In this document: positions 8,388 through 35,514 of the stretch, in pieces
Position numbering within the stretch: position 1 is the first letter of the stretch
Layout: every line of letters starts with the position of its first letter
Assembly (NCBI GenBank): GCA_016193195.1
Contig: JACPSQ010000035.1
Span: 2,435 to 55,360, forward strand
Source of the DNA: Candidatus Omnitrophota bacterium
Lineage (GTDB): Bacteria > Omnitrophota > Gorgyraeia > Aquiviventales > Aquiviventaceae
Length of the DNA stretch: 52,926 nt
Direction: 5' to 3'
The notes under the pieces: model-generated
What the model was told of the DNA's origin: nothing
The model's input: the letters and a program-made list of their open reading frames with translations, nothing else
The model's database searches: none
Program-made: the position numbers and the translations under genes

Positions 8388-9491
8388 GTGACAATCCCAT
8401 CAAGCCACTTTTTGGACGGCAAGACGATCTTGGTCACCGGGGGGACCGGGTCGTTTGGCCAGCAGTTCGTCGACACGGTCCTGAGACTCAGCCAGCCGGA
8501 AGCCATCCGTATCTACTCCCGTGACGAGCTCAAACAGCAGCAGATGCAGCGGCGCGTTCCGGATCAGCGGCTGCGGTTCCTCATCGGGGACGTACGCGAT
8601 AAGGAGCGGCTCTACCGGGCGATGCGAGGTGTGGAGATCGTGGTCCACGCGGCGGCGCTCAAGCAAGTTCCGGCGTGCGAATACAACCCCTTTGAAGCCG
8701 TCAAGACCAACGTGCTGGGGGCGGCCAATGTGATCGACGCGGCGATCGACTGTAGTGTTGACCGTGTGCTGGCGATCAGCACCGACAAGGCGGTCAACCC
8801 GATCAACCTCTATGGCGCGACGAAGCTCTGCGCCGAGAAGCTGTTCATCCAAGGCAATGCCTACTCAAGGGAGCGGAGGAAGCGGTTTAGCTGCGCGCGA
8901 TATGGCAACGTGGTCGCCAGTCGTGGCAGCGTGGTCCCCCTGTTCCTGCAACAACGGTCCAATGGGAGAATCACGGTGACGGATCGGCGGATGGCCCGGT
9001 TCTGGATGACCCTCGAGCAAGGGGTGGCATTCGTCTTGCGCTGCCTGGACCTCATGCATGGTGGTGAGATCTTTGTTCCGAAGATCCCAAGCATGAGCAT
9101 TATGGATTTGGCCAATGTGATCGCCCCTGGGTGCCGGATTACGTTCACAGGCATCCGGCCAGGGGAGAAGCTCCATGAGCTGCTCATTTCTCCTGATGAA
9201 GCCCAACATACCAGGGCGTTCCCAGACATGTTTGTCATCCAACCTGCCCACCCGTGGTGGACCACAGGTAGGTGGCGAGGAGGCACATCTCTGCCCGAAG
9301 GTTTTAGTTATAGCAGCGCCACGGCTCCGCGCCTGAGCGTGGAGGAGCTTGGCAGGATCGTCGCCCGGCTGGAGCAGCAGTCGGCCATCCCCGTCGTGCC
9401 AGATGGTGACGACGGCGACACGGCTCCCTTGACGCCTCCACAGCCCCGCGCACGGCCACGACGCACTCGGGTGTTGGTCAAACATGGCTGA
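8388..9491 (+). CDS. pseB: UDP-N-acetylglucosamine 4,6-dehydratase (inverting), PseB/FlaA1/CapD-type
   Basis: The start is GTG. Motifs: 'GKTILVTGGTGSFGQQFV', 'IRIYSRDELKQ', 'FLIGDVRDKERL', 'VVHAAALKQVPACEYNPFEAVKTNVLGAANV', 'ISTDKAVNPINLYGATKLCAEKLF'. A Pro/Arg-rich tail of about 35 aa extends beyond the usual length. Confidence 0.9.
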   Translation: MTIPSSHFLDGKTILVTGGTGSFGQQFVDTVLRLSQPEAIRIYSRDELKQQQMQRRVPDQRLRFLIGDVRDKERLYRAMRGVEIVVHAAALKQVPACEYNPFEAVKTNVLGAANVIDAAIDCSVDRVLAISTDKAVNPINLYGATKLCAEKLFIQGNAYSRERRKRFSCARYGNVVASRGSVVPLFLQQRSNGRITVTDRRMARFWMTLEQGVAFVLRCLDLMHGGEIFVPKIPSMSIMDLANVIAPGCRITFTGIRPGEKLHELLISPDEAQHTRAFPDMFVIQPAHPWWTTGRWRGGTSLPEGFSYSSATAPRLSVEELGRIVARLEQQSAIPVVPDGDDGDTAPLTPPQPRARPRRTRVLVKHG

Positions 9492-10710
9492 AGGAGAACC
9501 AAAGGCCGCTGCTCCCTTGGCATCCACCACGCTTGCGTTGGAGGCAAGCGTCCAGGCGCGGACGCCCATGCTGCCGTACGGCCGGCACACTGTGGTTGAG
9601 GCGGACATCCAAGCGGTGGTGGAGGTGTTGCGATCCGAGCGCCTGACGCAGGGTCCTGTGGTTGACGCGTTTGAGGCGGCGGTGGCCGAGGCCGTCGGGG
9701 CCCGCTACGCTGTGGCGTTCAGCTCGGGCACGGCCGCGCTCCATGCCGCGGTGTTTGCAGCCGGACTTGGGCCAGGGGATGAGGCGATTACAACGCCCCT
9801 GACCTTTTGCGCGACGGCCAACAGTGTGCTGTACCAGGGGGCCCAGCCGGTGTTTGCGGATGTGTGTCCTGATACGCTCAACCTCGATCCGAGCGAGGCC
9901 GCGAGGCGGGTCACCCCTCGCACGAAAGCGATCCTCCCGGTCGATTATGCGGGGCATCCAGCGGATCTTGACGCGTTCCTCGCGGTGGCCGATCGGCATG
10001 GCCTCGTCATCATCGAGGACGCCTGTCATGCCCTGGGCGCGACGTTCAAGGGTAAGCGGGTGGGGGGGCTGAGCCATATGACGGTGTTCAGCTTTCACCC
10101 CGTTAAGCACATCACGACCGGCGAGGGCGGGATGGTGACGACCGATCACCAGGGGTTCGCGCGTCGCCTGCGCGTGTTTCGCCAACACGGCATCGAGGAG
10201 GATGAGAGGCACCGGGATCCCCACCGGCCCTGGTACTACGAGATGACCGAGTTGGGGTACAACTACCGGCTGAGCGACATTGGCTGCGCGTTGGGACTCT
10301 CCCAATTGACGCGCCTCCAGGCGAACCTGGAGCGAAGGGCCGCCATCGCGCAGCGCTACCACGAGGCGTTTGGGAGTTTGCCAGGGCTGCGCTGTCCGGC
10401 GCAGAGATCCGGGGTCCGGCACGCGTGGCATCTCTATCCGATCCGCCTGGAGTCGCCAACGCACGGGATGGACAGGGCCAAGGTCATCCACGAGTTGCGG
10501 GCACGGGGGCTTGGGGTCAGCGTCCATTTCATTCCGGTGTACTGGCATCCCTATTACCGGCAGCGGCTTGGCATGCGGCCGGGGCTATGCCCTGTGGCGG
10601 AAGACGCCTATCACCAATTGATCAGCCTCCCGATGTTTCACGGCATGGGGCAGGACGAGGTTGAGCGGGTGATTGTAGCGGTGGCAGACGTCTTCAGGGC
10701 ACTGGCCTGA
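9484..10710 (+). CDS. pseC: DegT/DnrJ/EryC1-type aminotransferase, PseC-like (UDP-4-amino-4,6-dideoxy-N-acetyl-beta-L-altrosamine transaminase)
   Basis: 'LPYGRHTVVEADIQAVVEVLRSERLTQGPVVDAFE', 'FSFHPVKHITTGEGGMVTT' (PLP Lys) and 'NYRLSDIGCALGLSQL'. An alternative start at ATG 9568 (MLPYGRH) is equally plausible. Confidence 0.85.
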   Translation: MAEGEPKAAAPLASTTLALEASVQARTPMLPYGRHTVVEADIQAVVEVLRSERLTQGPVVDAFEAAVAEAVGARYAVAFSSGTAALHAAVFAAGLGPGDEAITTPLTFCATANSVLYQGAQPVFADVCPDTLNLDPSEAARRVTPRTKAILPVDYAGHPADLDAFLAVADRHGLVIIEDACHALGATFKGKRVGGLSHMTVFSFHPVKHITTGEGGMVTTDHQGFARRLRVFRQHGIEEDERHRDPHRPWYYEMTELGYNYRLSDIGCALGLSQLTRLQANLERRAAIAQRYHEAFGSLPGLRCPAQRSGVRHAWHLYPIRLESPTHGMDRAKVIHELRARGLGVSVHFIPVYWHPYYRQRLGMRPGLCPVAEDAYHQLISLPMFHGMGQDEVERVIVAVADVFRALA

Positions 10711-10717
10711 TTCCGAG

Positions 10718-12442
10718 ATGATGCAGGCGCGCTCCACAACCGATCAAGCGCCGGAGCGGTTCTATCAACGGTTTGGGCCGGACGGGCGAGTGCTGAACCC
10801 CACCTGGCCTCGGTTGACGACGGAAGCGTCCCTCCAGGCGTTCCCCTCGCGGCCGAGCGGCCGGCGGCTGCTGCTGATCAATGCGCCGATTCGGGAATGG
10901 TCCTATCCGAACATCATGCCCATCGGGCACGGGTATGTCGCTGCGGCGGCCATCATGGATGGCCATACGGTACGTGCCCTGGATCTGAATGCGGCGCGCC
11001 GAGGACCGATGCAGCTGGATGCCGAGGCCCTGGCCGCATGGGTTGAGCGACACGTGCTTGACGCGTTGGAAGAGGACAAGCCGGACGTCATTGGGCTGGG
11101 CGGCATTGTGACCCAGTACGCCCGGATCAAGCAGGTCGCCCGCCTCTGCAAGTCCGTGTATCCCGATGTCCCCATCGTGCTGGGCGGGGGTATTGCGTCC
11201 TCGATTCCGGAGTTCATGGTCCAACGCCTGCCGGTCGATGTGGCGGTGCAAGAAGAAGGCGAAGTGACGTTCTCTGAGTTGCTTCATCGGCTGGAGGAGG
11301 GGGCGTCCCTTGAAGGACTGAGGGGCACGGTGTCTCGACGGACCATTCGTCCAGGTGAGTGGGACATCCGCAATCACGGCTTGCGTCCCTCCGTCAAGAG
11401 TCGAACCCTTGGGCTGGATGCGCTGCCTTGGCCGCTGAGGACGCTCTGGCCGATTGACGGGGTCTACAAGCGCAACCCTGTCGGACACCTCAACTGGAAG
11501 ACGAAGTGGATTGATGGCGCGCCCACCGGGCCGGATCAGTATTCGGAGTCCATGATCGCTTCCAGGGGATGCCCTTATGCGGCGCGTGCGTGCGACTACT
11601 GCTACGCGGCCTATCTGGGCAAGCAGTATCGGCTCCGGAGCCCTCAGGATATAGTGGATGAAATGGAATTCCTCAAGCGGCGCTACGGGCTGTGCTACAT
11701 CCATTTCCTGGATGACCTCATGATGACGGATTTTCGGTGGGCCCTGGAGTTCTGCGCGGAGCTGCGCCAGCGCCGCCAACGGACGGGATTTGCCATCATG
11801 TGGGGCGGAACGTGTCGAACCAACATCGTGGCCGATGACGTCATTCGGGCTCGACAGGAAGGCCGGCCGCACATGCTGGAACAGGCGTTTGAGGTCGGGA
11901 TGCGGCAGGCAGGCTATGGGGTGGAATCCGCGAGCCCCACGATCCTCAAGGCCATTGATAAGAGCGGACAGACTGTGGAGAAGATGGAGCTGGCGATTCG
12001 GGAGACTCGGCGCATTATGGGCTACGCGGACTGCTCCTTCATGATCGGTTCTCCAAGCGAGTCTCGAGAGACCGTTCAGGAGACGGTGGACTTTTGCCGG
12101 CGCGTGGGGCTCAAGCCGGAGGTGTTCTTCTTCACGACGGCCTATCCGGCGACGACCTTTTGGGCCCTGGCGCTGGAGAAGGGCCTGATCGCCAAAGCCG
12201 TCACCGGCAAGCCCGGTCCGGCTGATGAGGACATCATTGAGGAGTACCTGATCCGGCTGGGTGAGCAGGGGGAGGCGATTCGGACGAACTTCAGCGACCT
12301 GCCGGATGAGGAAGTGGTGGACCTCTCGTGGTGGGCGATTCAGGAGCTGGGGGCCCAGAACACCGTGCGGCATCCCCACACGGGTGATGAGCAGGTGTTG
12401 AGGAAGAGCGCGGTTCGTGGCGCGACGCGGGCGGACCTCTAG
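10718..12442 (+). CDS. B12-binding-domain radical SAM protein (class B-like)
   Basis: The N-terminal B12-binding-like region is 'RLLLINAPIREWSYPNIMPIGHGYVAAAAIMDGHTVRALDLN...VIGLGGIVTQY...VPIVLGGGIAS'. The radical SAM core is 'IASRGCPYAARACDYCYAAY' followed by 'IHFLDDLMM'. Confidence 0.85.
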   Translation: MMQARSTTDQAPERFYQRFGPDGRVLNPTWPRLTTEASLQAFPSRPSGRRLLLINAPIREWSYPNIMPIGHGYVAAAAIMDGHTVRALDLNAARRGPMQLDAEALAAWVERHVLDALEEDKPDVIGLGGIVTQYARIKQVARLCKSVYPDVPIVLGGGIASSIPEFMVQRLPVDVAVQEEGEVTFSELLHRLEEGASLEGLRGTVSRRTIRPGEWDIRNHGLRPSVKSRTLGLDALPWPLRTLWPIDGVYKRNPVGHLNWKTKWIDGAPTGPDQYSESMIASRGCPYAARACDYCYAAYLGKQYRLRSPQDIVDEMEFLKRRYGLCYIHFLDDLMMTDFRWALEFCAELRQRRQRTGFAIMWGGTCRTNIVADDVIRARQEGRPHMLEQAFEVGMRQAGYGVESASPTILKAIDKSGQTVEKMELAIRETRRIMGYADCSFMIGSPSESRETVQETVDFCRRVGLKPEVFFFTTAYPATTFWALALEKGLIAKAVTGKPGPADEDIIEEYLIRLGEQGEAIRTNFSDLPDEEVVDLSWWAIQELGAQNTVRHPHTGDEQVLRKSAVRGATRADL

Positions 12443-12461
12443 GGTGATGGATGAAGGAAGG

Positions 12462-12857
12462 ATGCGATTGATTCTCCTGGGTGCTGGCTCAATCGGGCGG
12501 CGTCACCTCCAGAATGCCCTGGCGTTGGGGCATGAGGTGGTGGCCGTCGCTGATCCCGATCCCTCGAGCCTGGGGCTGGTCCGACGCCAGTGGCACATCC
12601 CCGTGCTGACGGCAGACGTCTCGGAGGCGTTTCGACAGCGGGCCGAGGCGGCGGTGATCTGTTCGCCGACCGTAGAGCATGTGTCGCAGGCTCGGTGGGC
12701 GGTGCGCGAGGGCCTCCATGTGCTTGTTGAGAAACCCCTTTCGCACACGCTGGATCAGGTGGATGAACTGATTGCGGAAGCGGCTGCCGCCCAGCGGGTT
12801 GTCCTCATCGGATGTAACCTGCGGTTCTTCCCAAGCTTGCAGGGGAGTGCTCCTTGA
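12462..12857 (+). pseudogene. Gfo/Idh/MocA oxidoreductase, N-terminal Rossmann fragment ending at a frameshift/deletion
   Basis: ATG 12462 is preceded by 'gaaggaagg'. The sequence reads 'MRLILLGAGSIGRRHLQNALALGHEVVAVADP...VICSPTVEHVSQARWAVREGLHVLVEKPLS...LIGCNLRFFPSLQ', then GSAP-stop. The matching C-terminal domain continues in another frame (next feature). Confidence 0.7.
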
Positions 12858-14931
12858 CTGGATCCACGAGTTTGATTATCTGCGCTGGTTCTTTGGGCAG
12901 GTCGGGGAGGTGTTCTGCTATACCGGGACCACGGGGACGCTGGATGTGGAGGTCGAGGACTACGCGGAAGTCCTCTTGCGATTTGACGCCGGCGTCGTCG
13001 CGAATGTCCATCTGGACTACCTGCAGCGGACCTACCGTCGCTCATGCGAGATTATCGGCGCTGAGGGCGTGCTCATCTGGGACTACATCGCCCAGACCGT
13101 GACGTGCTACGGCAGGACGGATCGCCAGGTCGAAGTCTTCACAGAGCAGATCGATACAGAACGGAATCAGATGTTCCTTGAAGAAAGGATGAACGGTGAG
13201 GGGGTCTTTCGCTCGGTCAGCGTGATTGCCGACATGGCCCTGTCGTATGAGGGATCGTATGATCTGGCCTTGGCGACCGTGGAGGCCGCCGCGGAGGCCC
13301 ATGCAGGCGCCATCAATTTTCAGATTTTCCTCGCGGATGAGTTGGCCGTGCCAGGCTACCACTATTACCCCTTGTATACCCGGCTGGAATTGCCGCCCGA
13401 ACGCTGGGCGAGCCTCATCACTCATGCACATCAGCGTGGCCTGAAGGTTACCGCGAATGTCTTCGGAGCCGCGACGGCCATGTGGCTTGCCGAGGCCGGC
13501 GTCGACGCCTTCAAGGTTCACGCGGCCGATGTCGGCAACCGCCCCTTCCTGCAGCGGATCGGTGCGCTCGGCAAGCCGGTCCTCCTGTCGGCTGGCGGCA
13601 GTACGCTCGGAGAAATCAGCCATGCCCTCCGCGTCCTCCAACAACACGGCGCCCCTGAGGTGGCCCTCCTGGCGGGCGTGCAGAACACCCCGACGGCAGT
13701 GGACGACACCCACCTCGCCCGCATCCGGTTGTTGAAAGAACGCTTCGGCCTACCCGTGGGCTATGCCGATCACCTGGATGCCGACGCCCCTCTGGCTCCC
13801 GTCGTGCCGCTCCTGGCGATTGCAGCCGGTGCTGACTTCGTGGAAAAACACATCACCCTGGCCCGGGCGCTCAAGCGCGGGGACTATGTCTCTGCGCTGA
13901 ACCCGGATGAGTTTGCGGAGTTTGTCTTGCGTCTCCATGAGGCTCGCCGGTGCGTGGGGGTGCCGGGAGGGGATTTGGGAGAAGGGGAGCTCTCCTACCG
14001 AGAGGGCATGAAGAAGCGCGTCGTGGCAAGGCGGAGCCTCGAAGCCGGCCACGCGCTGCGTGAAGAGGATCTGACGCTGCTCAGGACGGACGAACCGAGC
14101 GATCTGTGGACGCTGGAACACGCCGTGGGTCGGGCCGTTTCACGAACGATTTCCCAATACGGCTCGATCGGCGAGCGCGATCTCTCGGCTCGTCCTGACG
14201 CTCTCAAACGGCTCGTGGCGGTGCTGTTGTGCCGGGCGAGTTCCTCCCGGCTGTATGCCAAACCGCTTCAGCGCGTCGGGGACAAGACGATCCTCGAGCA
14301 TCTCATTGGCCAGATCCGCTTGATCCCACGCCTTGACGAGATCATCCTGGCTATCAGTGAAGGGCCGGCGAATGCAGGATTTGTCAAACTGGCCAACCAG
14401 TTGGATCTGGACTATGTCATCGGGGACGAAGAAGACGGGCTGAGCCGCATGCTTCGCGCTGCGGAGTTTGCGCGTGCGGACACCGTGTTTCGCGTCACCA
14501 CAGAGAATCCGTTCTTGCACATCGAGAACATCAACCAGCTCATCGAGACGCATGCGGAGCGCCAATCGGATTTGACCTATTGCGACCGGCTGCCGGAAGG
14601 GACGTTTTCGGAGCTGGTGGAGCTGTCCGCCTTGCGGCGGTCCTATGAGCGGGGAACCAGACGCCACCGCAGCGCCTGGGTCAATCTCTATATCCGGGAG
14701 CACCCGGAGCAGTTCCGCATCGCGACCCTGCTGCCGCCTGAGGAACTGCAGCGTCCGGAGATCAGGCTGACCGTGGATTATCCGGAGGACCTGATCGTCG
14801 CGCGCAAGGTCTATGAGGCCTTCGACGGCCGGATGCCGATCCCCATCCGCTCGATCATCAGGTTTCTGGACGAGCATCCGGAGATCAAGGCGATCAACCA
14901 AGGCCTGGAAGTTGGGGCGCTGCCCGTCTGA
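12772..14931 (+). CDS. Fusion ORF: Gfo/Idh/MocA C-terminal remnant + NeuB/SpsE-like synthase with SAF domain + SpsF/PseF-type cytidylyltransferase
   Basis: 'GVLLDWIHEFDYLRWFFG...EDYAEVLLRFDAGVVANVHLDY' is the Gfo C-terminal domain. 'VIADMALSYEG...AINFQIF...LLSAGGSTLGEI...VGYADHLD...FVEKHITL' plus the SAF-like 'RVVARRSLEAGHALREEDL' is NeuB-like. 'VAVLLCRASSSRLYAKPLQRVGDKTILEHLI...VIGDEEDGLSRML...FRVTTENPF...RLTVDYPEDL' is the cytidylyltransferase. The functional start is uncertain: TTG 12772 per the ORF track, and the internal ATG 13189 would give a NeuB-like+CT protein. Confidence 0.75.
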   Translation: MRKRLPPSGLSSSDVTCGSSQACRGVLLDWIHEFDYLRWFFGQVGEVFCYTGTTGTLDVEVEDYAEVLLRFDAGVVANVHLDYLQRTYRRSCEIIGAEGVLIWDYIAQTVTCYGRTDRQVEVFTEQIDTERNQMFLEERMNGEGVFRSVSVIADMALSYEGSYDLALATVEAAAEAHAGAINFQIFLADELAVPGYHYYPLYTRLELPPERWASLITHAHQRGLKVTANVFGAATAMWLAEAGVDAFKVHAADVGNRPFLQRIGALGKPVLLSAGGSTLGEISHALRVLQQHGAPEVALLAGVQNTPTAVDDTHLARIRLLKERFGLPVGYADHLDADAPLAPVVPLLAIAAGADFVEKHITLARALKRGDYVSALNPDEFAEFVLRLHEARRCVGVPGGDLGEGELSYREGMKKRVVARRSLEAGHALREEDLTLLRTDEPSDLWTLEHAVGRAVSRTISQYGSIGERDLSARPDALKRLVAVLLCRASSSRLYAKPLQRVGDKTILEHLIGQIRLIPRLDEIILAISEGPANAGFVKLANQLDLDYVIGDEEDGLSRMLRAAEFARADTVFRVTTENPFLHIENINQLIETHAERQSDLTYCDRLPEGTFSELVELSALRRSYERGTRRHRSAWVNLYIREHPEQFRIATLLPPEELQRPEIRLTVDYPEDLIVARKVYEAFDGRMPIPIRSIIRFLDEHPEIKAINQGLEVGALPV

Positions 14932-14933: not shown

Positions 14934-16217
14934 ATGCGCGACTCGCATTCGCAGGAGTGGCTCGCCCGCAGCCGCCAGGTGATTCCCGGTTGCACACAAA
15001 CGTTCAGCAAAGGTCCTACGCAGTTCGTGCAGGGCGCCTCGCCAGCCTTCCTCGTCCGCGGGCGCGGCAGTCACGTCTGGGACGTGGATGGCCAGGAGTA
15101 TCTCGATTACTCGATGGCCCTAGGGCCGGTCATTCTGGGATATCGCGATCCGGTCGTCACCAAGGCGGTGAAACGGCAACTAGAGTCTGGGACGATCTTT
15201 TCACTGCCACATCCACTTGAAGTCGAGGTCGCCGAACTGCTCACCCAGGTTGTCCCATGCGCCCAGATGGTGCGATTCGCCAAGAACGGCTCTGATGCGA
15301 CCGCGGGCGCGGTGAGACTCGCCAGGGCCGTGACAGGACGGGATCTCATCGCGTGCTGTGGCTACCATGGGAATCAGGACTGGTACATTGGGACGACCAC
15401 GCGCAATCGGGGCGTGCCCGAATCGGTTCGACGCTTGACCATCCCGTTTGTCTATAACGACATTGACAGTCTTGCGCGGATCTTCGCCGAGCATCCCCAC
15501 CAGGTTGCTGCGGTGATCATGGAACCGGTAGGCCTTGAGCCGCCGCGCGAGCAGTTTTTGGAACAGGTACGCGACCTGACGCATCGGGAAGGCGCGGTCC
15601 TCATCTTTGATGAAGTGCTGACAGGATTCCGCGTGGCGCTGGGTGGGGCGCAGGAGTACTTCGGCGTCACACCTGACCTGGCCTGCTTCGGCAAGGCCAT
15701 GGCGAACGGCTACCCCCTGTCAGCCGTGGTCGGACGACGGGAGATCATGGAAGCGTTTGAAGAGGTCTTCTTCTCGTTTACGTTCGGGGGGGAAGCGCTC
15801 TCGCTGGCCGCGGCGAAGGCGACGATCACAACGCTGCGCAGCCACGCGATCATTCCGCAGTTGTGGGAACATGGTCGTCGCCTTCAAGACGGATTCAACC
15901 GACTGGCGGCTCAGTTCGGTCTTGCGCAGCGCGTCGTCTGTGAGGGACTGCCGCCGCGGACGATGGTGAGCTTCACCGATGGGACCGGAGCTGAGTCGCT
16001 GCCAGTGAAGAGCTTGTTTCAACAGGAGTGTCTGACGCGCGGCGTGCTGTTTTCAGGAAGCCACAACCTGTGCGCCAGCCACACTCGGGAAGACGTGGAA
16101 CAGACCCTCCGGGTGTATCGGGAAGCGATGGCGGTCGTGGCAGAGGCCGTGGCGGCTGGCGATGTCCTGGAGCGGCTGCAGGGTACGCCGGTGCAGCCGG
16201 TCTTCCGTCGCGCCTAG
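14934..16217 (+). CDS. Class III (HemL/glutamate-1-semialdehyde aminomutase-like) PLP aminotransferase
   Basis: 'RGRGSHVWDVDGQEYLDYSMALGPVILGY', 'FDEVLTGFRVALGGAQEYFGVTPDLACFGKAMANGYPLSAVVGRREIM' (Lys in FGKAM). Confidence 0.9.
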   Translation: MRDSHSQEWLARSRQVIPGCTQTFSKGPTQFVQGASPAFLVRGRGSHVWDVDGQEYLDYSMALGPVILGYRDPVVTKAVKRQLESGTIFSLPHPLEVEVAELLTQVVPCAQMVRFAKNGSDATAGAVRLARAVTGRDLIACCGYHGNQDWYIGTTTRNRGVPESVRRLTIPFVYNDIDSLARIFAEHPHQVAAVIMEPVGLEPPREQFLEQVRDLTHREGAVLIFDEVLTGFRVALGGAQEYFGVTPDLACFGKAMANGYPLSAVVGRREIMEAFEEVFFSFTFGGEALSLAAAKATITTLRSHAIIPQLWEHGRRLQDGFNRLAAQFGLAQRVVCEGLPPRTMVSFTDGTGAESLPVKSLFQQECLTRGVLFSGSHNLCASHTREDVEQTLRVYREAMAVVAEAVAAGDVLERLQGTPVQPVFRRA

Positions 16218-16230
16218 CATCAGGTCATCC

Positions 16231-19234: not shown

Positions 19235-19264
19235 CCACGCAGGGTGTGGGGTGAGGGCTGCTCG

Positions 19265-20346: not shown

Positions 20347-20515
20347 GCCGTCGTCTCCGACGGGCGATGCGGCGGGGGGAGCATGTCACCTGGGAGGCGC
20401 TTGAGTGACCATGGCGCGGCAGGTTCGGCATGTGTCGCTGGTCCCAGCTCGGGGAAGGAACGCGACTAGCAGCGTGGAGCGGCGGGTCCCTCGAGGGATG
20501 CGAGGTCGCGTGCTC

Positions 20516-23046: not shown

Positions 23047-23057
23047 GAAGTTCCGTC

Positions 23058-26512: not shown

Positions 26513-26522
26513 CAGCAGGCGG

Positions 26523-28441: not shown

Positions 28442-30291
28442 TGGGGTCTTCGGGATTGATGATCGGCTCCCGTCTCGTTGACGAGCAGCACCCGCTCCTC
28501 ATCGCCGAGATCGCCTCGGCGCACGACGGTCAGGTGGAGCAGGCCTGTGCGCTGGTCCGGGCGGCGGCCGATGGGGCAGGCGAGGCCGTCAAATTTCAAC
28601 TGGTGATCGCGGAGGAATTGCTCACGCCCTCCCACCCGGACTTCGAGATGTTCCATCGCCTGGAACTCAAGCTGCAGGACTGGCAGACAGTGGTGGGGGA
28701 AGCGCGCCAACGGGGATTGATCTCGAGTGCCGATGTGTTCGGGGAGCAGAGCCTTCGGCTCGCCCAAGACCTCGGGATCCAGCTGCTGAAGATCCCCTCG
28801 TCCAGCTTGACGGATCCGGTCCTGGTTCCCCTCGTGGCCTCGCGGGGTGTGCCCACCCTGCTCTCTGTTGCGGGGGCGACGGAGGAGGAAATCGCGTGGG
28901 TGGTTGAGCAATTCCGGCAGGCCGGGCATCGCGCGTTTGTCCTGATCCACGGCTTTCAAGGCTTTCCGACCCCGCTGGCGGCGACGCACCTCAACAGGCT
29001 GTCTTGGTTGCGTCAGCGCTTTGCATGCCCTGTGGGACTTTCCGATCACCTCCCGGCCGACACGGCGGTCGCGCGACACCTGCCGCTTGTCGCGGTGGGG
29101 TTGGGCGCATCGGTGATTGAGAAGCACCTGACGCAAAGCCGCAGCCGGCGAGGTCCTGACTGGGTGTCCGCGCTCGAACCGGCTGAATTTGGGCAGCTTC
29201 AGGAGGCGCTGCGACACATAAGTGCGGCGTTCGGTCCTGAGGAGGGAGCGTGCTGGATGGAGGGGGAAGCGCGGTACCGCCGGCAGATGCGTCGGCAGCT
29301 CGTGGCTGGGCGGACCCTTCAGGCCGGCGAGATCCTCACCGCCGACAAGATCACTCAACGTCGCGCCATCGCGCCGGGCAGCATGGATCCCTGGTTTTTC
29401 CCTCGGCGGGTGGCGGGCAAGACCTTGCGGCGGTCGTTGTCACCGGATGAGGCGATCACGTGGGACTCGCTGAGCGATCCCCTCGTGGCGGTCCTGATCG
29501 CCGTCCGCATGAAGTCGGCCCGGCTTCCTCGCAAGGCGCTGGCGGATCTTGCCGGAAAGCCCGTCATCGAACGATTGGTGGAGCGGATGAAAACCGCCCG
29601 CCATCCCCAGCGGCTGGTGCTCTGCACGTCCACCCATGCCGATGACCGGGTCTTGGTGGAGCTGGCCAGGCGGTTGGGGATCGAGTGGGTCTGCGGGGAG
29701 GAAGAGGATGTCATGGCGCGATTCCTCCGCGCCGCCGAACAGACGCAGGCCGAGCTCATCGTGCGCGTGACAGGGGATAACCCGCTGACGGACGCCGAGA
29801 CGATGGATCGGATGATCGTCAGCCACCTCGAGCGCGACGTGGAGTACACCTACACGGACGACCTCCCCTTCGGCACCCGCCCCGAGATCATCTCCGTGGA
29901 AGCCCTGCGGCGCGTCCAGGCCTTGGCGGAAGATCCTGGGCAGACCGAGTACATGACCGCCTACCTCAAGCAGCCCGAGGCCGTGAAGTCCTACCGGTAT
30001 GTCGTGCAGGACGCGCAGCTGGTTCGACCCCACTACCGGCTCACCCTGGACACCCCTGAGGATCTCGCAGTGTTGCAGCAGATCTACGCGCGGTTCGGCC
30101 CCGACGGATCAACCGTGTCGTTGCGGGAGGTGATTCGGCTGCTGGATCAATCGCCGGAGCTGGTGGCGATGAATGCCGCCGTGCAGCAGCGTCAGGTCGC
30201 CGGCGTGATCAATGCGCGTCTGCGGGCTCCACGCGCGCCTGCGGAGGCAGGCGTCGTGGACATTGCAGGAGGGGATGAGGATGCTCGGTAG
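28438..30291 (+). CDS. Fusion: NeuB/SpsE-like synthase with SAF domain + SpsF/PseF-type cytidylyltransferase
   Basis: 'PLLIAEIASAHDGQVEQACALVRAAADGAGEAVKFQLV', 'LLSVAGATEEEI', 'VGLSDHLPAD', 'VIEKHLTQ', and SAF 'QLVAGRTLQAGEILTADKI'. From about 29480: 'VAVLIAVRMKSARLPRKALADLAGKPVIERLV', 'VCGEEEDVMARFL', 'VRVTGDNPL', 'RLTLDTPEDL'. Confidence 0.85.
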   Translation: MMGSSGLMIGSRLVDEQHPLLIAEIASAHDGQVEQACALVRAAADGAGEAVKFQLVIAEELLTPSHPDFEMFHRLELKLQDWQTVVGEARQRGLISSADVFGEQSLRLAQDLGIQLLKIPSSSLTDPVLVPLVASRGVPTLLSVAGATEEEIAWVVEQFRQAGHRAFVLIHGFQGFPTPLAATHLNRLSWLRQRFACPVGLSDHLPADTAVARHLPLVAVGLGASVIEKHLTQSRSRRGPDWVSALEPAEFGQLQEALRHISAAFGPEEGACWMEGEARYRRQMRRQLVAGRTLQAGEILTADKITQRRAIAPGSMDPWFFPRRVAGKTLRRSLSPDEAITWDSLSDPLVAVLIAVRMKSARLPRKALADLAGKPVIERLVERMKTARHPQRLVLCTSTHADDRVLVELARRLGIEWVCGEEEDVMARFLRAAEQTQAELIVRVTGDNPLTDAETMDRMIVSHLERDVEYTYTDDLPFGTRPEIISVEALRRVQALAEDPGQTEYMTAYLKQPEAVKSYRYVVQDAQLVRPHYRLTLDTPEDLAVLQQIYARFGPDGSTVSLREVIRLLDQSPELVAMNAAVQQRQVAGVINARLRAPRAPAEAGVVDIAGGDEDAR

Positions 30292-31351
30292 GTATTATCA
30301 AGAAGTGGGATGGCTCAGGCGCAGGGTCGCCGCGGCGAGAGAGTTGTGGAAGCGCCGATTCGAGTGGCGGTTTCTCCTGTACCGGGCGAAGTTTCATTGG
30401 TCGCATCGGCTGGATCTGCCCAGCGCCTTTCCCGCCCACCTCGATATCGAGACCACCGACGCGTGCAATCTCCGTTGCATCATGTGCGTGCAGGGCATCG
30501 GGGAAGGAGTCAAGGATACCGGCATGATCGAGATGGACTTTGCGAAACGGCTCATTGATGAAGGGGCTCGCAATGGCCTCTACTCGATCAAGTTCAACTG
30601 GCGGGGCGAACCCGCCCTTCATTCGGGATTGGCGGAGCTGGTGCGCTATGCCAAAGCGCGGGGGATCCTGGAGGTGCAATTCAACACCAACGGGATTCCC
30701 TACACGGAGTCCAAAATCAGGGAGCTGGTGTTGTCCGGCCTTGATCGGGTGATCTTCTCCATGGATGGCGCGTCGAAGGACACGTATGAGCGCATCCGCG
30801 TGGGAAGCAGCTACGACAAGCTCGTCGAGAACGTGAAGTTCTTTCATGCCATCCGGGAGGCCCTGGGCCGGGAACGGCCGTTCATCCGCATTCAGATGGT
30901 TCGGATGAAAGCCAACCAGCACGAGGTCGACCAGTTCGTGGAGATGTGGAAGCCCTTCGTGGACGACATTCGGATTGAGGATGTGTCGGACCGCGGCCAA
31001 GGTGAGCAACTCTCCGTGGGGGACTGGGTCACGACAGGCCGGAAGCGCTGCCCGCAACCCTGGCAGCGCATGGTCGTCTCTCGAGATGGGAAGGTCCTGC
31101 CGTGCTGTGCGGACTGGCATCGCGAGTTCATCATCGGGGACGCGACCCAGGAATCCCTGAAGGCGATCTGGCGTGGCAAGCGGATGGAGATGATGCGCCA
31201 GGTGCAGCGGGAGGTCCGGTTGGATCAGGTCAGCCCCTGTCGCCAGTGCTACGTCAAGGAGAGTTTTGTGTGGAAGCGGCGTCCCACGCCGGCGGCGAGC
31301 GAGCCGCCCGAGACCCCGCAGCCGCATGAGGACGCCGACGTCACGGTGTAA
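30275..31351 (+). CDS. Radical SAM enzyme with a partial SPASM/Twitch-like C-terminal Cys domain
   Basis: The CX3CX2C motif is 'ETTDACNLRCIMCVQG'. 'IKFNWRGEPAL' is the GGEP-like element. The C-terminus reads 'CPQPWQRMVVSRDGKVLPCCADW...SPCRQCY'. Start is ATG 30275 or 30281, the latter after 'ggagggga'. It overlaps the upstream stop. Confidence 0.85.
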   Translation: MRMLGRYYQEVGWLRRRVAAARELWKRRFEWRFLLYRAKFHWSHRLDLPSAFPAHLDIETTDACNLRCIMCVQGIGEGVKDTGMIEMDFAKRLIDEGARNGLYSIKFNWRGEPALHSGLAELVRYAKARGILEVQFNTNGIPYTESKIRELVLSGLDRVIFSMDGASKDTYERIRVGSSYDKLVENVKFFHAIREALGRERPFIRIQMVRMKANQHEVDQFVEMWKPFVDDIRIEDVSDRGQGEQLSVGDWVTTGRKRCPQPWQRMVVSRDGKVLPCCADWHREFIIGDATQESLKAIWRGKRMEMMRQVQREVRLDQVSPCRQCYVKESFVWKRRPTPAASEPPETPQPHEDADVTV

Positions 31352-31355: not shown

Positions 31356-32492
31356 ATGCCGACGGTGAGGATTGGACAGAAGCTGATCGGCCCCGGCCAA
31401 CCGGTGTTCGTCATTGCGGAGGCCGGGTGTAATCACGGATGCAATCTCCAGGTGGCGAAACGGATGGTCCGTCAGGCGGCGTGGGCCGGGGTGGATGCGA
31501 TCAAATTCCAGACCTACAAAGCCGAGCTGCTGGCGACGCGGACCGCCCCGACGTACTGGAAGCGGACGCCGGGTGCCCCGCGAACCCAATTTGAATTCTT
31601 CAAGCAGTTGGATCATTTCGATCGTGCGGACTACGCGGCGTTGGCGGCGGAGTGCCGCCGCGCCGGTCTGCTCTTTTTATCGACGCCGTGGGATTTCCAC
31701 AGCGCGGATATGCTTGATGAGCTCGGGGTGCCGGCCTTCAAGATCGGTTCCGCCGATCTGACCTACCTGCCGCTCATCCGACACTGCGCTAGCAAGGGAA
31801 AGCCCATCCTGCTCTCAACCGGCGCGGCGACGATCGAAGAGATTGAGGAGGCGGTCCGGACGGTCCGAGCCGTCGGGAACCGCCAGGTGATCCTGTTACA
31901 CTGCATCCTGGCCTATCATACGCTGCCTCACGATGTGCATCTCGCGATGATCGGAGAGCTGCAGCGCCGGTTTCCGGACTATCCGGTGGGATTTTCGGAT
32001 CATACGATTGCGGATGAACACCTGACGATCCAGACCGCTGCGGTCGCGCTGGGGGCCTGCGTGGTTGAGAAGCACTATACCTTAAACAAGCGTGCCCCTG
32101 GAAACGACCACTGGCACTCCCTGGAGCCGCGTGAGTTCAGACAGATGATCGCTAACGCTCAGCTCGTGCAAGCGGCGATGGGGCGCAGTGGTCCACGGGT
32201 GCCGCTGCCGTGCGAGCGACCCGCGAGACGGTTTGCCCGTCGCAGTCTCGTGGCGCTGCATGACATCCCCAAAGGCTCCGTCATCACGGCCTCCGATCTG
32301 ACCTGCAAGCGGCCTGGGACCGGCATTTCACCAGGACAGCTCGACCGGGTGGTCGGAGCACGAGCCAAGCGAACGATTCTCGAGGACACGGTGATCACAT
32401 GGTCCATGGTGGATGGATGCCATCCCACACGCCTCCCGGTGCGTGGCGGGACATCTGAGGGAGCGAGGCGCCGTGAGCCCATTGCCGCTTGA
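31356..32492 (+). CDS. NeuB-family nonulosonic acid synthase with SAF domain
   Basis: I prefer ATG 31356 ('MPTVRIGQKLIGPGQPVFVIAEAGCNHGCNLQVAKRMVRQAAWAGVDAIKFQTY'). Also 'LLSTGAATIEEI', 'VGFSDHTIAD', 'VVEKHYTL', and SAF 'SLVALHDIPKGSVITASDLTCKRPG'. Confidence 0.85.
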   Translation: MPTVRIGQKLIGPGQPVFVIAEAGCNHGCNLQVAKRMVRQAAWAGVDAIKFQTYKAELLATRTAPTYWKRTPGAPRTQFEFFKQLDHFDRADYAALAAECRRAGLLFLSTPWDFHSADMLDELGVPAFKIGSADLTYLPLIRHCASKGKPILLSTGAATIEEIEEAVRTVRAVGNRQVILLHCILAYHTLPHDVHLAMIGELQRRFPDYPVGFSDHTIADEHLTIQTAAVALGACVVEKHYTLNKRAPGNDHWHSLEPREFRQMIANAQLVQAAMGRSGPRVPLPCERPARRFARRSLVALHDIPKGSVITASDLTCKRPGTGISPGQLDRVVGARAKRTILEDTVITWSMVDGCHPTRLPVRGGTSEGARRREPIAA

Positions 32493-35400
32493 GATCGATC
32501 CCCCGCACGTCACCATTCATCTCCAAGGCGGACGGCAGATCGGCATGGGGCATGTCGTCCGGATGCTCTGGCTGGCCCAGAGCCTCACGGCGCGGGGGCT
32601 GGCGGTGGAGATGCTCCTCCGAGGAGAGCCGGAAGCCGCCGCCATGATTCGGCAGGCGGGCTTCCCGGTGCAGGCCTATTCTGCCGGAGCGTCTGCCGTG
32701 GTCACGGTGGAGCGTTACCTCGACCAGCCGGGTCCGCAACCCTCGGTCTGGGTCAACGATTGTCTGACGGTGAGCCCCTCGGTGCACGCGGCGCTTCAGC
32801 GTCGAGCGATTCCCATCGTTTCGCTGGATGACGAGGGCCGAGGCCTGAGCCGTCTGGATCTTGTCGTCAATGCCATGCCCGCGTTCTGGCAAGAGGCGCT
32901 TCCCACAGGGGCGCAGATGTATCAAGGCCCCGAGTACATGATTCTCAATCCGCTGGTCAAGGTGTATCATGACCGGCCCAGACCAATCCGCACGCGGCCC
33001 AGCCAGGCCGTGGTGACGCTGGGGGGCAGCGATCCGCATGGGGTGATCTTCAACGTGCTCCGGGCTCTCGCGACCATGCCCTCCGCGCTTGAATGGCATG
33101 TGTTTGTCGGGCCGCTCTTTGCCCATCGTCGCGCGCTCGACCGGTGGCAGAAGCGCCTGGCTGGGCAGGTGTGTCTCCGCTGGCATGACGGGCAGTCCGA
33201 AGTGATCCCGACGTTTGCCCAAGCGGACGTGGCGATCTGCGCGAGCGGCCACACCCTCTTTGAAATGCTGAGTGTGGGCACGCCGGTCTTGGCAATCGCG
33301 AACGCCAGGCACGAAATCGTCAACGGCAGATATTTTGCCTCACTGGGTGCCTGCCATTTCCTTGGGCTGCATACCGCTGTGACCCCAGGTCGCATCGGGC
33401 AGGCGGTTCGTCAATTACTGGCGGATCCAACCCAGCGGGCGCGTCTCTCGCAGCGGGGCCAGTCCTACATCGATGGACGTGGGGCTGAGCGGGTGACGGA
33501 GCTGCTCGAACGTCTCGCCAGGCGTCCCGTGTCGGCCAGACGCGTGGTGGAGGCGGTGGAGCAACAGGCTCACGCGGCAGCTCCGACTGGACCGACGGCC
33601 CGGGAAGACGGACACCCCGGCGTGTTGCTGTGCGATCGGTTGGAGCCTCTGATGAGGCTCTCGAGGCGGCATGGGCTCTCGCAGGCGCGATTCATTGTGC
33701 TGTCAGAGACTTCGGAACACGCTGCCATCCGCGGATGGCTTCGTGAGCGGCTCGGGGCGGAGGAACTGCCCTATGTGGAATTGTCGCGGGCGCGCCGGCA
33801 GGCATTCCAGCCTCGGTATATCGAGTTCATTGGGCGGTTCAACCGGACGCACCGCTCGCCGTTTTGGTTGGCGATGCCGTTTACGGCCAAGAGCATGCTC
33901 TCAACGGGGTTGTGCCGCAATACGTTCCAGTTCCTCCTCATCGTGGAGTTGCTCCAGACCAGCGACCGGCCACTGATCGTGATCACTCATAACCGGACCA
34001 TGGCTGACCAGGTGGTGTTATGGGCACGGGTCCAGCCCCGATGGGTGTGCAATGCGGTCCGTGGCCGTTCGGTCCTGAAACGCCTCTTCAAACGTTTCAC
34101 CCCGCTGGCGATCCTTGTGGCGATGATTCGGACCTCGGTGGTGTGGGTCCTGAGCAGGCGATTCCGGCTGGACGGGGACCGGTGGCGTGATGCCACCATC
34201 GTGGTGACGACATTTCCGAATTCGTCCATCCAGCTTCCGGTCTACCGAGAAGCCTATTTTGGGTCCCTGCCGGCCTCCTTGACTCAACACGGCCAGCGGG
34301 TGGTGCTGTTTGCCTTGTATGCGGAGCGCGCGCTGTCGCACATCCTGGCGCTGCGCCGTGTCAGCCAAGGCCTGCCGGTGGTCCCGCAGGAGGCCTACCT
34401 GACCTGGCCAGATCTCTTGGCCTGTGGCGTTCGGGCCCTCATACAGTGGATGAAGCGGTTTCCGTATCGTGAGCCGGTGCAGATCGATGGGATCAGCGTG
34501 GACGTCTTGGTCGAGCGGGAAATCGCTGAGAGCTGCCAGTCGAGGAGCCTCTTCTGGCATTTGTGCATCGCCGCGGCGGCTCGACGGCTGGGTCAGCGCC
34601 TTGCCCCTGCCAGGTGCTTGTATCCGTTCGAGAACCGCGCGTGGGAGAAAATGTTCCTGATCGGCCTGCGGGAAGCCTCGCCCCATACCGAGACGATTGG
34701 CTATCAACATACCGTCTTTACCTTCGCGCATACGAACCTGTTCTTCGGGGAAGGCGAGGCGAGACTCACGCCGCTCCCCAATTGCATTCTCACGGCTGGA
34801 GAGGTCACGAAGCAGCGTCTTGAAGAGCATGGTCGGTATCCGGACGGTTTGTTGAGGCTGGGGTGTGCCTTGTATCAACGGCAACCGCAATCGCTGGAGC
34901 GCCGGACGTCCCGTCCGGTTCAGCTCACGAATCTCTTGGTCGCGCTCAGCAACGACCGAGAGGAGTATGTCCGCGTGTTGCAGTTTTTGCGGGAAGCGCT
35001 GGCGGACCTCCACGGCTATCAGATTCGGCTCCGCCCGAACCCGGGGCTTGGCGTCCGGCTCCTGGAGGAGGCCCTGGCGACGGTCCGCCACCCCGCAGGG
35101 GGCCGCTACGATGTCAGCCGGACATCCTTGCCTGAAGACCTGCGCTGGGCTCACGTCGTGCTCTACGCCTCCTCCTCGGTCGCCCTCGCTGCGCTCAGCC
35201 ATGGGATCCCGGTCATCTTTGTGGATGTCGGGAAATTCCTCGATCCTGATCCGTGCCTGGCGATGCACGATCTCAAGTGGGCGGTGGACGAGCCTTCAGC
35301 GTTGCATCCGACCCTCCGCCGGATCGCGGCCCTCCCCGATGAGATGTTTGAGCTCCAACAACGGCGCGCCCTCGCGTATGTTGAGCGCTATTTCCCTGCG

Positions 35401-35514
35401 CCCACCGAGGCGCGGCTCCAGGCCTTCAGGCAGGCGGAGGACGCACGCGACCCCGACGTGGCTGAGGCGGCGGCTGACGCGCGACCGGAAGCTGGGCTGA
35501 CCACGGTTGCATAA
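32473..35514 (+). CDS. Fusion: PseG-like (GT28-C-type) domain + ~650-aa region of unknown function
   Basis: GTG 32473 is in frame with the ORF-track start 32413, which lies deep inside neuB. The PseG-like part is 'VTIHLQGGRQIGMGHVVRMLWLAQSL', 'VVTLGGSDPHGV', 'ADVAICASGHTLFEMLSVGTPVLAI'. After about aa 400 I see no motif I can assign, except the GT-B-like 'HVVLYASSSVALAALSHGIPVIFVD'. Confidence 0.75.
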   Translation: MSPLPLEIDPPHVTIHLQGGRQIGMGHVVRMLWLAQSLTARGLAVEMLLRGEPEAAAMIRQAGFPVQAYSAGASAVVTVERYLDQPGPQPSVWVNDCLTVSPSVHAALQRRAIPIVSLDDEGRGLSRLDLVVNAMPAFWQEALPTGAQMYQGPEYMILNPLVKVYHDRPRPIRTRPSQAVVTLGGSDPHGVIFNVLRALATMPSALEWHVFVGPLFAHRRALDRWQKRLAGQVCLRWHDGQSEVIPTFAQADVAICASGHTLFEMLSVGTPVLAIANARHEIVNGRYFASLGACHFLGLHTAVTPGRIGQAVRQLLADPTQRARLSQRGQSYIDGRGAERVTELLERLARRPVSARRVVEAVEQQAHAAAPTGPTAREDGHPGVLLCDRLEPLMRLSRRHGLSQARFIVLSETSEHAAIRGWLRERLGAEELPYVELSRARRQAFQPRYIEFIGRFNRTHRSPFWLAMPFTAKSMLSTGLCRNTFQFLLIVELLQTSDRPLIVITHNRTMADQVVLWARVQPRWVCNAVRGRSVLKRLFKRFTPLAILVAMIRTSVVWVLSRRFRLDGDRWRDATIVVTTFPNSSIQLPVYREAYFGSLPASLTQHGQRVVLFALYAERALSHILALRRVSQGLPVVPQEAYLTWPDLLACGVRALIQWMKRFPYREPVQIDGISVDVLVEREIAESCQSRSLFWHLCIAAAARRLGQRLAPARCLYPFENRAWEKMFLIGLREASPHTETIGYQHTVFTFAHTNLFFGEGEARLTPLPNCILTAGEVTKQRLEEHGRYPDGLLRLGCALYQRQPQSLERRTSRPVQLTNLLVALSNDREEYVRVLQFLREALADLHGYQIRLRPNPGLGVRLLEEALATVRHPAGGRYDVSRTSLPEDLRWAHVVLYASSSVALAALSHGIPVIFVDVGKFLDPDPCLAMHDLKWAVDEPSALHPTLRRIAALPDEMFELQQRRALAYVERYFPAPTEARLQAFRQAEDARDPDVAEAAADARPEAGLTTVA

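Follow-up and report, generated by a model that had tools for sequence, protein, structure and literature searches.

A 52,926-nucleotide stretch of DNA from a Candidatus Omnitrophota bacterium (GenBank assembly GCA_016193195.1, contig JACPSQ010000035.1, positions 2,435 to 55,360; hereafter the window, whose own coordinates are used below) carries at 8388-35514 the nonulosonic-acid (NulO) part of a larger O-antigen/lipopolysaccharide (LPS) locus. As judged from sequence and gene order, this part holds two separate conserved NulO cassettes, A (8388 to ~25034) and B (28438-35514), each of which recurs with the same gene order elsewhere. Each cassette encodes one canonical NulO synthase together with one fusion protein, in which a NeuB-like domain and a SAF domain are joined to an SpsF-type cytidylyltransferase domain. 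NulOs are found on LPS, capsules, flagella and S-layers, where they influence recognition by the immune system and by phages, and to our knowledge only the routes to neuraminic (Neu), pseudaminic (Pse) and legionaminic (Leg) acids and a few variants are understood.

The best overall explanation of this arrangement, which we judge to be about an even call, is that each cassette pairs its canonical synthase with a fusion that activates a tailored NulO. The fusion family occurs in Bacteria and Archaea, lies beside a canonical synthase in nearly nine of ten loci, often has a very conserved radical S-adenosylmethionine (SAM) partner, and has no assigned reaction. Its elucidation would be likely to extend NulO biochemistry by a new step or by new sugars and to provide a genomic marker for them, and the presence of the family in culturable Bacillus and Paenibacillus makes it directly testable. 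No published description of a NeuB/cytidylyltransferase fusion family, or of radical SAM enzymes in NulO clusters, was found in the literature.

Two kinds of NeuB-type domain

Domains were called with Pfam models, and equivalogs with NCBIfam models relative to their curated cut-offs. A sequence-only reading of the same DNA had recognized four NeuB domains, two PseG-type domains, two CTP_transf_3 domains, two radical SAM enzymes, PseB, PseC, a GNAT acetyltransferase and a formyltransferase, and profile searches recovered all of these at or near the positions that it gave, with E-values far below chance. The four NeuB domains are not four equivalents. All four proteins, numbered (i) to (iv) in order along the window, match the NeuB (PF03102) and SAF (PF08666) models, and they comprise two canonical synthases, (ii) and (iv), and two members of the fusion clade, (i) and (iii).

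Fusion (i) (13177..14931) carries a NeuB match of 150.9 bits at residues 170-396 of the open reading frame (ORF) 12772-14931, followed by SAF and CTP_transf_3 domains (63.4 bits for the latter). Its start is probably the ATG of ‘MNGEGVF’ at 13177, because relatives P0122-P0135, of about 580 amino acids, begin at the same point. Fusion (iii) (28438..30291) has the same architecture, with a NeuB match of 148.8 bits at residues 39-267 and a CTP_transf_3 match of 83 bits; its cytidylyltransferase domain matches PDB entry 6oew with 75.7 bits, and the whole protein is 61-62% identical to relatives P0001 and P0002.

Domain (ii) is the PseI portion of a protein encoded at 16162..18102, where a sugar N-formyltransferase (Formyl_trans_N and N_formyltrans_C) is fused to its N terminus. 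The NeuB match covers residues 317-555 (301.7 bits), the PseI model TIGR03586 gives 473.3 versus a cut-off of 340.25, and Campylobacter jejuni PseI (PDB 8h2c) is matched with 302.7 bits. Protein (iv) (31356..32492, the real start of ORF 31266-32492 being 31356) is a canonical NeuB-type synthase resembling SpsE and the Leg/Neu synthases, with a PF03102 score of 264 bits and Bacillus subtilis SpsE (1vli, 196 bits) as its best PDB match. Only (ii) passes the model of a characterized synthase; none of (i), (iii) and (iv) reaches the equivalog cut-off of either NeuB_NnaB or PseI, the NeuB_NnaB scores being 175.5, 183.1 and 336.7, respectively, versus a cut-off of 399.65.

Pairwise comparisons separate the same two kinds. 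Between (i) and (iii), identity is 34% over approximately 575 residues, with both the NeuB-like and the cytidylyltransferase parts covered, while their 29-34% identity to (ii) and (iv) is confined to the NeuB part. When 227 NeuB-type domains were ordered by neighbour joining, the fusion-type sequences clustered in a single block that is separate from the canonical synthases; here (ii) groups with PseI of C. jejuni and of Firmicutes, and (iv) groups with its orthologue from another Omnitrophota contig (L001), near Neisseria meningitidis NeuB and SpsE. By these comparisons, (i) and (iii) are paralogues within a distinct, uncharacterized family of NeuB-like/SAF/SpsF-type cytidylyltransferase fusions.

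Distribution and pairing of the fusion family

Relatives of (i) and (iii) are NeuB-like/SAF/CTP_transf_3 proteins of 570-620 residues that come almost entirely from metagenomes and metagenome-assembled genomes (MAGs). An exhaustive search of 1.84 billion cluster representatives at 50% identity yielded 926 matches at E<=1e-30, and about 100 of the best 150 of these are full-length fusions. A scan of species-representative genomes, which used a narrower alignment than the whole family, gave 291 relatives. The hosts include Omnitrophota, Nitrospira, Acidobacteriota, Planctomycetota, Pelagibacteraceae, ammonia-oxidizing and DPANN archaea, Bacillus, Cytobacillus and Paenibacillus. In their source annotations, the single-domain proteins closest to the cytidylyltransferase half bear the name SpsF.

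Gene neighbourhoods were surveyed at 83 non-redundant loci with a fusion-type domain, counting neighbours within 10 kb. A canonical NeuB is present at 73 of these loci, with a median start-to-start distance of 3.2 kb, whereas no accessory enzyme approaches this frequency: a radical SAM/SPASM enzyme occurs at 36 loci and an RmlD-like reductase at 12. In two cases (P0262 and L035) the canonical NeuB, NeuB-like, SAF and cytidylyltransferase domains are covalently joined. Since one cassette normally holds a canonical synthase and a fusion, the four NeuB domains of the window resolve into two such units, and the unit, as read from these neighbourhoods, is one canonical synthase plus one fusion.

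Both units recur in other genomes, as established by synteny links from BLAST (E<=1e-8). Cassette A runs PseB, PseC, B12-binding radical SAM enzyme, Gfo/Idh/MocA oxidoreductase, fusion, class III aminotransferase, PseI, PseG. Three other loci (L003-L005) share this order at 45-71% identity, reading PseB, PseC, B12 radical SAM enzyme, Gfo/Idh/MocA oxidoreductase, fusion, class III aminotransferase, NeuB, GNAT, PseG, a second GNAT and two large proteins; a fourth (L006) is a variant. Cassette B runs fusion, radical SAM/SPASM enzyme, NeuB, PseG-like domain, TIGR04326-type domain, and is matched in L001 at 57% and 65% identity for the two fusion domains, 76% for the radical SAM/SPASM enzyme, 73% for NeuB, 54% for the PseG-like domain and 36% for the TIGR04326-type domain. 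A groundwater Omnitrophota MAG of 65% G+C contains the nearest relatives of cassette B.

Other architectures were also observed among the relatives. A NeuB-like domain is flanked by two cytidylyltransferase domains in some proteins, and a GNAT domain precedes the NeuB-like and cytidylyltransferase domains in others. Five cluster representatives (P0304, P0324, P0351, P0353 and P0367) carry a C-terminal GT2 glycosyltransferase domain after the NeuB-like and cytidylyltransferase domains.

Some genomes place the fusion in a different setting. In Bacillus stercoris (L038, 9959-11755), and also in L043 and L048, a 598-amino-acid NeuB-like/cytidylyltransferase fusion stands alone; in L038 it is flanked by a small acetyltransferase/membrane-protein pair and by a phospholipase-D/cardiolipin-synthase-like gene, as named by reading their translations. 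In Paenibacillus silagei (L053, 11776-13489), genes for an aldo-keto reductase and a short-chain dehydrogenase/reductase (SDR) resembling KduD/gluconate-5-dehydrogenase directly follow the fusion in an otherwise standard Pse cluster. An aldo-keto reductase is also present in L002, beside a separate SpsF-like cytidylyltransferase about 6 kb from the fusion.

Predicted reactions of the two cassettes

In cassette A, UDP-N-acetylglucosamine (UDP-GlcNAc) would be processed by PseB and then PseC, and the resulting 4-amino group would be N-formylated by the formyltransferase fused to PseI and/or acetylated by the GNAT enzyme. PseG would then remove UDP, and PseI would condense the sugar with phosphoenolpyruvate (PEP) to give a Pse-type sugar, most simply Pse5Ac7Fo. 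We infer that such a 7-N-formyl derivative is the simplest product because a nucleotide-sugar N-formyltransferase domain is present. The sequence-only reading had described a complete Pse set, which is accurate for PseB, PseC, PseG and PseI, all present as equivalogs, but not for PseF and PseH. No PseF-named model and no NeuA-type cytidylyltransferase equivalog was matched in NCBIfam scans that covered the two fusions and the remaining ORFs of 8388-39104, and the GNAT gene scores only 38.1 with the PseH model (cut-off 93.1). Activation would therefore fall to the SpsF-type domain of the fusion, and N-acylation to the formyltransferase and/or this non-PseH GNAT enzyme.

The second synthase, hydrolase and activation set that the earlier reading noticed is cassette B. 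Here a PseG/SpsG-like hydrolase would act on a nucleotide sugar, and the SpsE-like canonical synthase would make a second NulO. A product of the Leg/Neu type is the simplest reading, because the cassette resembles the SpsG/SpsE/SpsF part of the B. subtilis route. In that organism, Leg is made from UDP-sugars by SpsM/C/D/G/E/F, where SpsG is PseG-like and no NeuC-type enzyme takes part (PMC7439481); this contradicts the premise of the earlier reading that Leg routes need a hydrolysing 2-epimerase of the NeuC/LegG type.

The C-terminal halves of the fusions are the candidate CMP-NulO synthetases of their own cassettes, and several observations point to this role. Across the plus-strand ORFs of the window, CTP_transf_3 domains were found in the two fusions and nowhere else. 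At the P. silagei locus (L053), the fusion lies between PseC and PseG in a Pen-Pal-PseC-PseG-PseH-PseI cluster, in which PseC, PseG, PseH and PseI are recognized at equivalog level and the Pen- and Pal-like dehydratases score below it, and the ten genes scanned there include no other cytidylyltransferase. Moreover, B. subtilis requires spsF at a stage following Leg formation, and SpsF is the predicted cytidylyltransferase of the UDP-sugar-based Leg route (PMC7439481); in Caulobacter, CMP-Pse activation is proposed to be carried out by FlmC, a cytidylyltransferase-like protein that is not homologous to PseF (PMC7591256).

The NeuB-like half, whose metal site is intact and whose substrate pocket is altered, is consistently paired with the canonical synthase. 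Most likely, though speculatively, it acts on a variant aldose or on the newly formed keto-acid in concert with a redox partner specific to the cassette, and the tailored NulO is then activated by the attached cytidylyltransferase. The redox partner would be the Gfo/Idh/MocA oxidoreductase with the class III aminotransferase in cassette A, where the oxidoreductase gene is broken in this genome, and the radical SAM/SPASM enzyme in cassette B. The roles given to both radical SAM enzymes are speculative.

A more ambitious version of this proposal, which we consider possible but fall short of expecting, is that the fusion performs an undescribed NulO step with the radical SAM/SPASM enzyme or with the Gfo/Idh/MocA and class III aminotransferase pair. 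This step could be a second PEP-dependent condensation, with a modified aldose as its substrate, or a metal-dependent change to the newly formed keto-acid ahead of CMP activation. New CMP-ulosonic acids (for example, additionally aminated, epimerized or C-modified) would then be made by many uncultured bacteria and archaea, and the window would hold two versions of the system side by side.

Active-site residues and alternative explanations

Conservation in the fusion family was examined in an alignment of 143 fusion-type sequences (median identity between pairs, 32%), numbered according to N. meningitidis NeuB. H215, E234, H236, D247 and Q184 are present in 100% of the sequences, K129 in 99%, E25 in 98%, Q55 in 97% and R314 in 94%. 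E25, E134 and E234 are the proposed catalytic residues of NulO synthases, and E134D is common in environmental, archaeal and eukaryotic representatives (PMC8208679); in the fusion family, position 134 is Asp in 63% of members and hydrophobic in 25%. Among the domains of the window, (ii) has E25, E134, H215 and H236, and (iv) has E134D. Fusion (iii) retains E25, H215 and H236 and has Ser at position 134, while (i) has D25, D134, H215, H236 and N53. E234 was tabulated for the fusion family only, and the 143 sequences in which it is invariant include (i) and (iii).

This pattern bears on a rather doubtful alternative, a refinement of the branching idea of the sequence-only reading, in which each NeuB-like domain is an active synthase for a different aldose derived from the same nucleotide-sugar intermediates, and the fused cytidylyltransferase activates only that product. 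The aldose might be, for example, a 4-keto product reduced by an RmlD-like enzyme, or an extra-aminated sugar made by the Gfo/Idh/MocA and class III aminotransferase pair, and each cassette would then yield two CMP-ulosonates, up to four for the window. The near invariance of E25, E234, H215, H236 and K129 is what an active synthase would show, as is the 94% conservation of R314, a substrate contact in N. meningitidis NeuB, and Asp, the commonest state of position 134, is the one found in archaeal and eukaryotic synthases (PMC8208679). Position 184 varies with substrate class among canonical synthases and is always Gln in the fusions. The stand-alone Bacillus fusion suggests a self-sufficient synthase-plus-activation unit, and the RmlD-like reductases found at 12 of the 83 loci fit the first of the two examples. 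However, if the fused domain served only its own product, the canonical product would be left with no other cytidylyltransferase either in the window or among the ten L053 genes scanned. In addition, the one partner that nearly always accompanies the fusion is the canonical synthase, and no branch-specific enzyme does so; the proteins that covalently unite canonical NeuB, NeuB-like and cytidylyltransferase domains favour cooperation over independence.

Other positions have been remodelled. T110, N184 and S213 are listed ligand contacts of NeuB (PMC6795526), and in the fusions these are replaced by Asp in 89%, Gln in 100% and Ala in 66% of members, respectively. Residues 53 and 110 covary, with 127 sequences carrying K/D, eight carrying N/N and none carrying K/N or N/D; the N/N state arose twice, in DPANN archaea and in the clade of (i). 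This suggests a direct K53-D110 contact that would replace the usual PEP-binding role of K53, and the alignment indicates that the pocket is clearly not that of a standard synthase.

Such changes could also mean that the NeuB-like and SAF domains make no sugar at all, and instead associate with the canonical synthase, or capture its product in the open-chain form, and pass the NulO directly to the fused cytidylyltransferase. We consider this improbable, although the three altered ligand contacts, a K53 that would pair with D110 rather than with PEP, and a position 134 that is hydrophobic in a quarter of members are all consistent with it. The pairing of fusions with canonical synthases and the triple fusions fit as well, and N. 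meningitidis NeuB is a domain-swapped dimer (PMC7591256). A pure scaffold, however, has no need for invariant metal ligands together with E25, E234, D247 and K129 at about 30% identity.

Decay of the extra copies into functionless duplicates of a degenerating locus is scarcely credible and was rejected: the neighbouring oxidoreductase gene is truly broken and (i) carries E25D, H30Y, K53N and T110N, but these substitutions are shared with intact, full-length relatives (P0122-P0127 and L003, 60-77% identical) and so typify its lineage, both fusion ORFs are uninterrupted, and active-site residues are conserved throughout a family found in both Bacteria and Archaea. The residue check that the sequence-only reading had called for likewise finds H215, H236, E234, D247, K129 and Q55 intact in the extra NeuB-like domains.

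The explanation that we prefer, a canonical synthase working with a fusion that activates a tailored NulO, also faces several difficulties. A separate cytidylyltransferase is present in addition to the fusion in L047, L081, L002 and L067, so the fusion need not always be the CMP-synthetase. Because only the canonical synthase is a near-universal neighbour, the tailoring partners are guesses. The solitary fusion gene in genomes of the B. subtilis group (L038) has no sugar genes nearby. At position 134, 25% of the family have a hydrophobic residue and (iii) has Ser, and Asn replaces K53 in (i); some NeuB-like domains may not catalyse PEP condensation. Finally, no dehydratase or aminotransferase gene adjoins cassette B in the window.

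The sequence-only reading had already remarked on this last point, and it holds only within 8388-35514. The locus as a whole does encode candidate enzymes of this kind. A DegT aminotransferase gene at 39908-41143 scores 376.3 with a dTDP-4-amino-4,6-dideoxygalactose transaminase model (cut-off 375), and an SDR gene at 46251-47237 is LegB-like (170.7 versus a cut-off of 475). Homologues of this SDR (53-60% identity) lie directly after cassette B in an Acidobacteriota contig (L040). Branching from a shared UDP-4-amino or 4-keto intermediate, along the lines suggested by the sequence-only reading, may occur.

Genes of cassette A

All listed genes of the NulO block are on the plus strand. The first is PseB, the inverting UDP-GlcNAc 4,6-dehydratase (8388..9491; TIGR03589, 463.7 versus a cut-off of 407.75), which is 63% identical to the syntenic gene of L003-L006. 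It is followed by the PseC aminotransferase (9484..10710; TIGR03588, 465.3 versus 423.5) and by a B12-binding radical SAM enzyme of putative class B type (10718..12442; PF02310, 61.9 bits; PF04055, 48.2 bits). The latter is 71% identical to the syntenic gene of L003-L005, and its cluster motif is CX7CX2C (CPYAARACDYC, residues ~285-296) rather than CX3CX2C, a feature kept in the L003 orthologue.

The Gfo/Idh/MocA oxidoreductase gene (12417..13176) is a genuine pseudogene. Its N-terminal domain lies in one frame (12417-12857) and a remnant of its C-terminal domain in another (from ~12847). Compared with the intact, 332-amino-acid L003 orthologue, residues ~128-172 are gone through an out-of-frame deletion of about 45 codons; the last ~45 residues are also lost, and the remnant reads in frame into fusion (i). 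An assembly error was considered as the source of the frameshift and rejected, since an independent assembly from another sequencing run (L090) is 100% identical over 12355-15710, across the junction. The sequence of cassette B is likewise reproduced in three other sequencing runs.

Downstream of fusion (i) is a class III, glutamate-1-semialdehyde aminomutase-like aminotransferase (14934..16217; PF00202, 188 bits; PRK06209, 445.7 versus 486), which is 67% identical to the syntenic gene in L003. After the formyltransferase-PseI protein come PseG (18116..19234; TIGR03590, 185.4 versus a cut-off of 153.55), with the motif GLGHLRR, an RmlD-like 4-keto-sugar reductase (19244..20182; RmlD_sub_bind, 198.9 bits; TIGR01214, 190.8 versus 224) and the GNAT acetyltransferase (20405..21061; Acetyltransf_3, 112 bits). 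The 222 nucleotides at 20183-20404 form the sole sizeable intergenic gap of the NulO block, all other junctions overlapping or spanning at most 13 nucleotides, and an internal promoter may lie within it.

The cassette ends with two large uncharacterized proteins (21058..25034) of 662 and 658 amino acids, the first weakly asparagine-synthase-like (TIGR01536, 34 bits) and the second with a PFTS motif (TIGR04417, 42 bits). Uncharacterized proteins of 697 and 676 amino acids occupy the same position in L003-L005, although BLAST at the synteny threshold gave no link between the two pairs. Searches of PDB sequences with the 662-amino-acid protein, the PFTS protein and the TIGR04326 domain of cassette B returned nothing usable.

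Between the cassettes (25031..28441) are genes for a Wzx-type flippase (Polysacc_synt_3), a GT2 glycosyltransferase (Glycos_transf_2) and a NanM-like sugar O-methyltransferase (TIGR04371, 67.9 bits versus 44). The GT2 gene, at 26262-27449, is two genes upstream of fusion (iii).

Genes of cassette B

Fusion (iii) is followed by the radical SAM/SPASM enzyme (30281..31351; PF04055 and PF13186), whose orthologues are 50-82% identical across phyla, making it far more conserved than the fusion itself. The protein has a CX3CX2C motif at residues 62-69 and, outside it, no more than five Cys. This is a smaller number than is usual for a complete SPASM domain carrying two auxiliary clusters, and the enzyme may bind a single auxiliary cluster.

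The canonical synthase (iv) is next and is 73% identical to the syntenic gene in L001. The last gene (32413..35514) encodes a PseG-like hydrolase fused to a TIGR04326-type surface-carbohydrate domain (~61-63 bits). The N-terminal PseG-like domain scores 101.6 with the PseG model, below the cut-off of 153.55, and carries the motif GMGHVVR; the pattern GxGH(V/L)xR is common to this domain, the PseG of the locus and a Paenibacillus PseG. The TIGR04326-type domain is possibly a transferase. In L001, an Omnitrophota MAG contig, the PseG-like and TIGR04326-like proteins are encoded by two separate genes (367 and 605 amino acids) in the same order.

Comparison with known systems

The gene content does not map onto any described pathway, as the sequence-only reading had concluded; the fusions, the two radical SAM enzymes and the Gfo/Idh/MocA and class III aminotransferase pair remain unaccounted for. 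Cassette A resembles the CMP-pseudaminic acid pathway of Campylobacter and Helicobacter in its PseB, PseC, PseG and PseI equivalogs, encoded in one operon-like block, and in its UDP-GlcNAc start and PEP condensation. It differs in the absence of PseF and PseH equivalogs, in the N-formyltransferase fused to PseI and in the four extra genes between PseC and PseI, which encode the B12 radical SAM enzyme, the Gfo/Idh/MocA oxidoreductase, the fusion and the class III aminotransferase.

Cassette B has the SpsE-like synthase, PseG/SpsG-like hydrolase (GxGH) and SpsF-type cytidylyltransferase of the B. subtilis sps route (PMC7439481), and like that route it has no NeuC-type epimerase. In contrast to that route, a second, divergent NeuB-like domain is attached to the cytidylyltransferase, the set contains an added radical SAM/SPASM gene, the hydrolase is joined to a TIGR04326 domain, and equivalents of SpsM/C/D are not adjacent.

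Among Firmicute Pse clusters of the Bacillus thuringiensis type (Pen-Pal-PseC-PseF-PseG-PseH-PseI), Paenibacillus and related loci, L053 among them, carry the same fusion family between PseC and PseG. These are Gram-positive flagellin or surface-glycan clusters, however, and an aldo-keto reductase and an SDR are found beside the fusion instead of the Gfo/Idh/MocA and aminotransferase pair or the radical SAM/SPASM enzyme.

The adjacent fusion (iii) and radical SAM/SPASM genes recall spiro-SPASM proteins (TIGR04321), in which an SpsF-like cytidylyltransferase is likewise paired with a radical SAM/SPASM domain. Membership in that family was rejected, because the window proteins score 41.2 and 90.2 versus a cut-off of 250 and the domains are split between two polypeptides; the cytidylyltransferase also carries the NeuB-like domain. 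Spirochaete spiro-SPASM proteins were sought with the radical SAM/SPASM gene, and of the 120 source-named matches listed, none comes from a spirochaete. A possible link to the flagellin glycan of Treponema denticola was also considered; this glycan is reported to be a Pse-type sugar bearing a 2-methoxy-4,5,6-trihydroxyhexanoyl group (PMC13439194). Such a hexanoyl group could in principle come from the condensation of PEP with a triose.

The O-antigen clusters of Legionella pneumophila serogroups 6 and 12 encode PseG, a class III aminotransferase, a cytidylyltransferase and HisF/H, with an aldo-keto reductase a few genes on, a combination that is also unexplained (PMC3694923). As in cassette A, a NulO O-antigen locus here brings together a PseG-like protein, a GSA-aminomutase-like aminotransferase and a cytidylyltransferase, the last annotated as ‘acylneuraminate cytidylyltransferase / putative glycosyltransferase’. 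These non-serogroup 1 clusters, which were compared by annotation only, have no reported NeuB-like fusion.

The surrounding locus

The window has a G+C content of approximately 65%, and all of its plausible genes are on the plus strand. Pfam and NCBIfam scans of these ORFs indicate one large surface-polysaccharide/LPS (O-antigen) locus, which in addition to the NulO block encodes GT87, GT4, GT2 and PMT_2 transferases and an AsnB-type amidotransferase. The Wzx-type flippase is accompanied in the locus by a WecA-like initiating transferase, an O-antigen ligase and two GT9 heptosyltransferases.

Two further features were observed downstream of cassette B. The block at 39908-43743 encodes the DegT aminotransferase, an ArnC-like GT2 protein, a hexapeptide O-acetyltransferase and an ArnT-like PMT_2 protein, and resembles undecaprenyl-phosphate-linked amino-sugar modification systems. 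In a single ORF at 47186-49054, a WecA/MraY-type transferase (residues 35-349) is joined to what matches only the N-terminal half of a WcaJ-type phosphoglycosyl transferase. The WcaJ match covers profile positions 1-226 of 453, a CoA_binding_3 domain is present, and the catalytic C-terminal half of the WcaJ type is gone; this ORF may be a fusion or another remnant.

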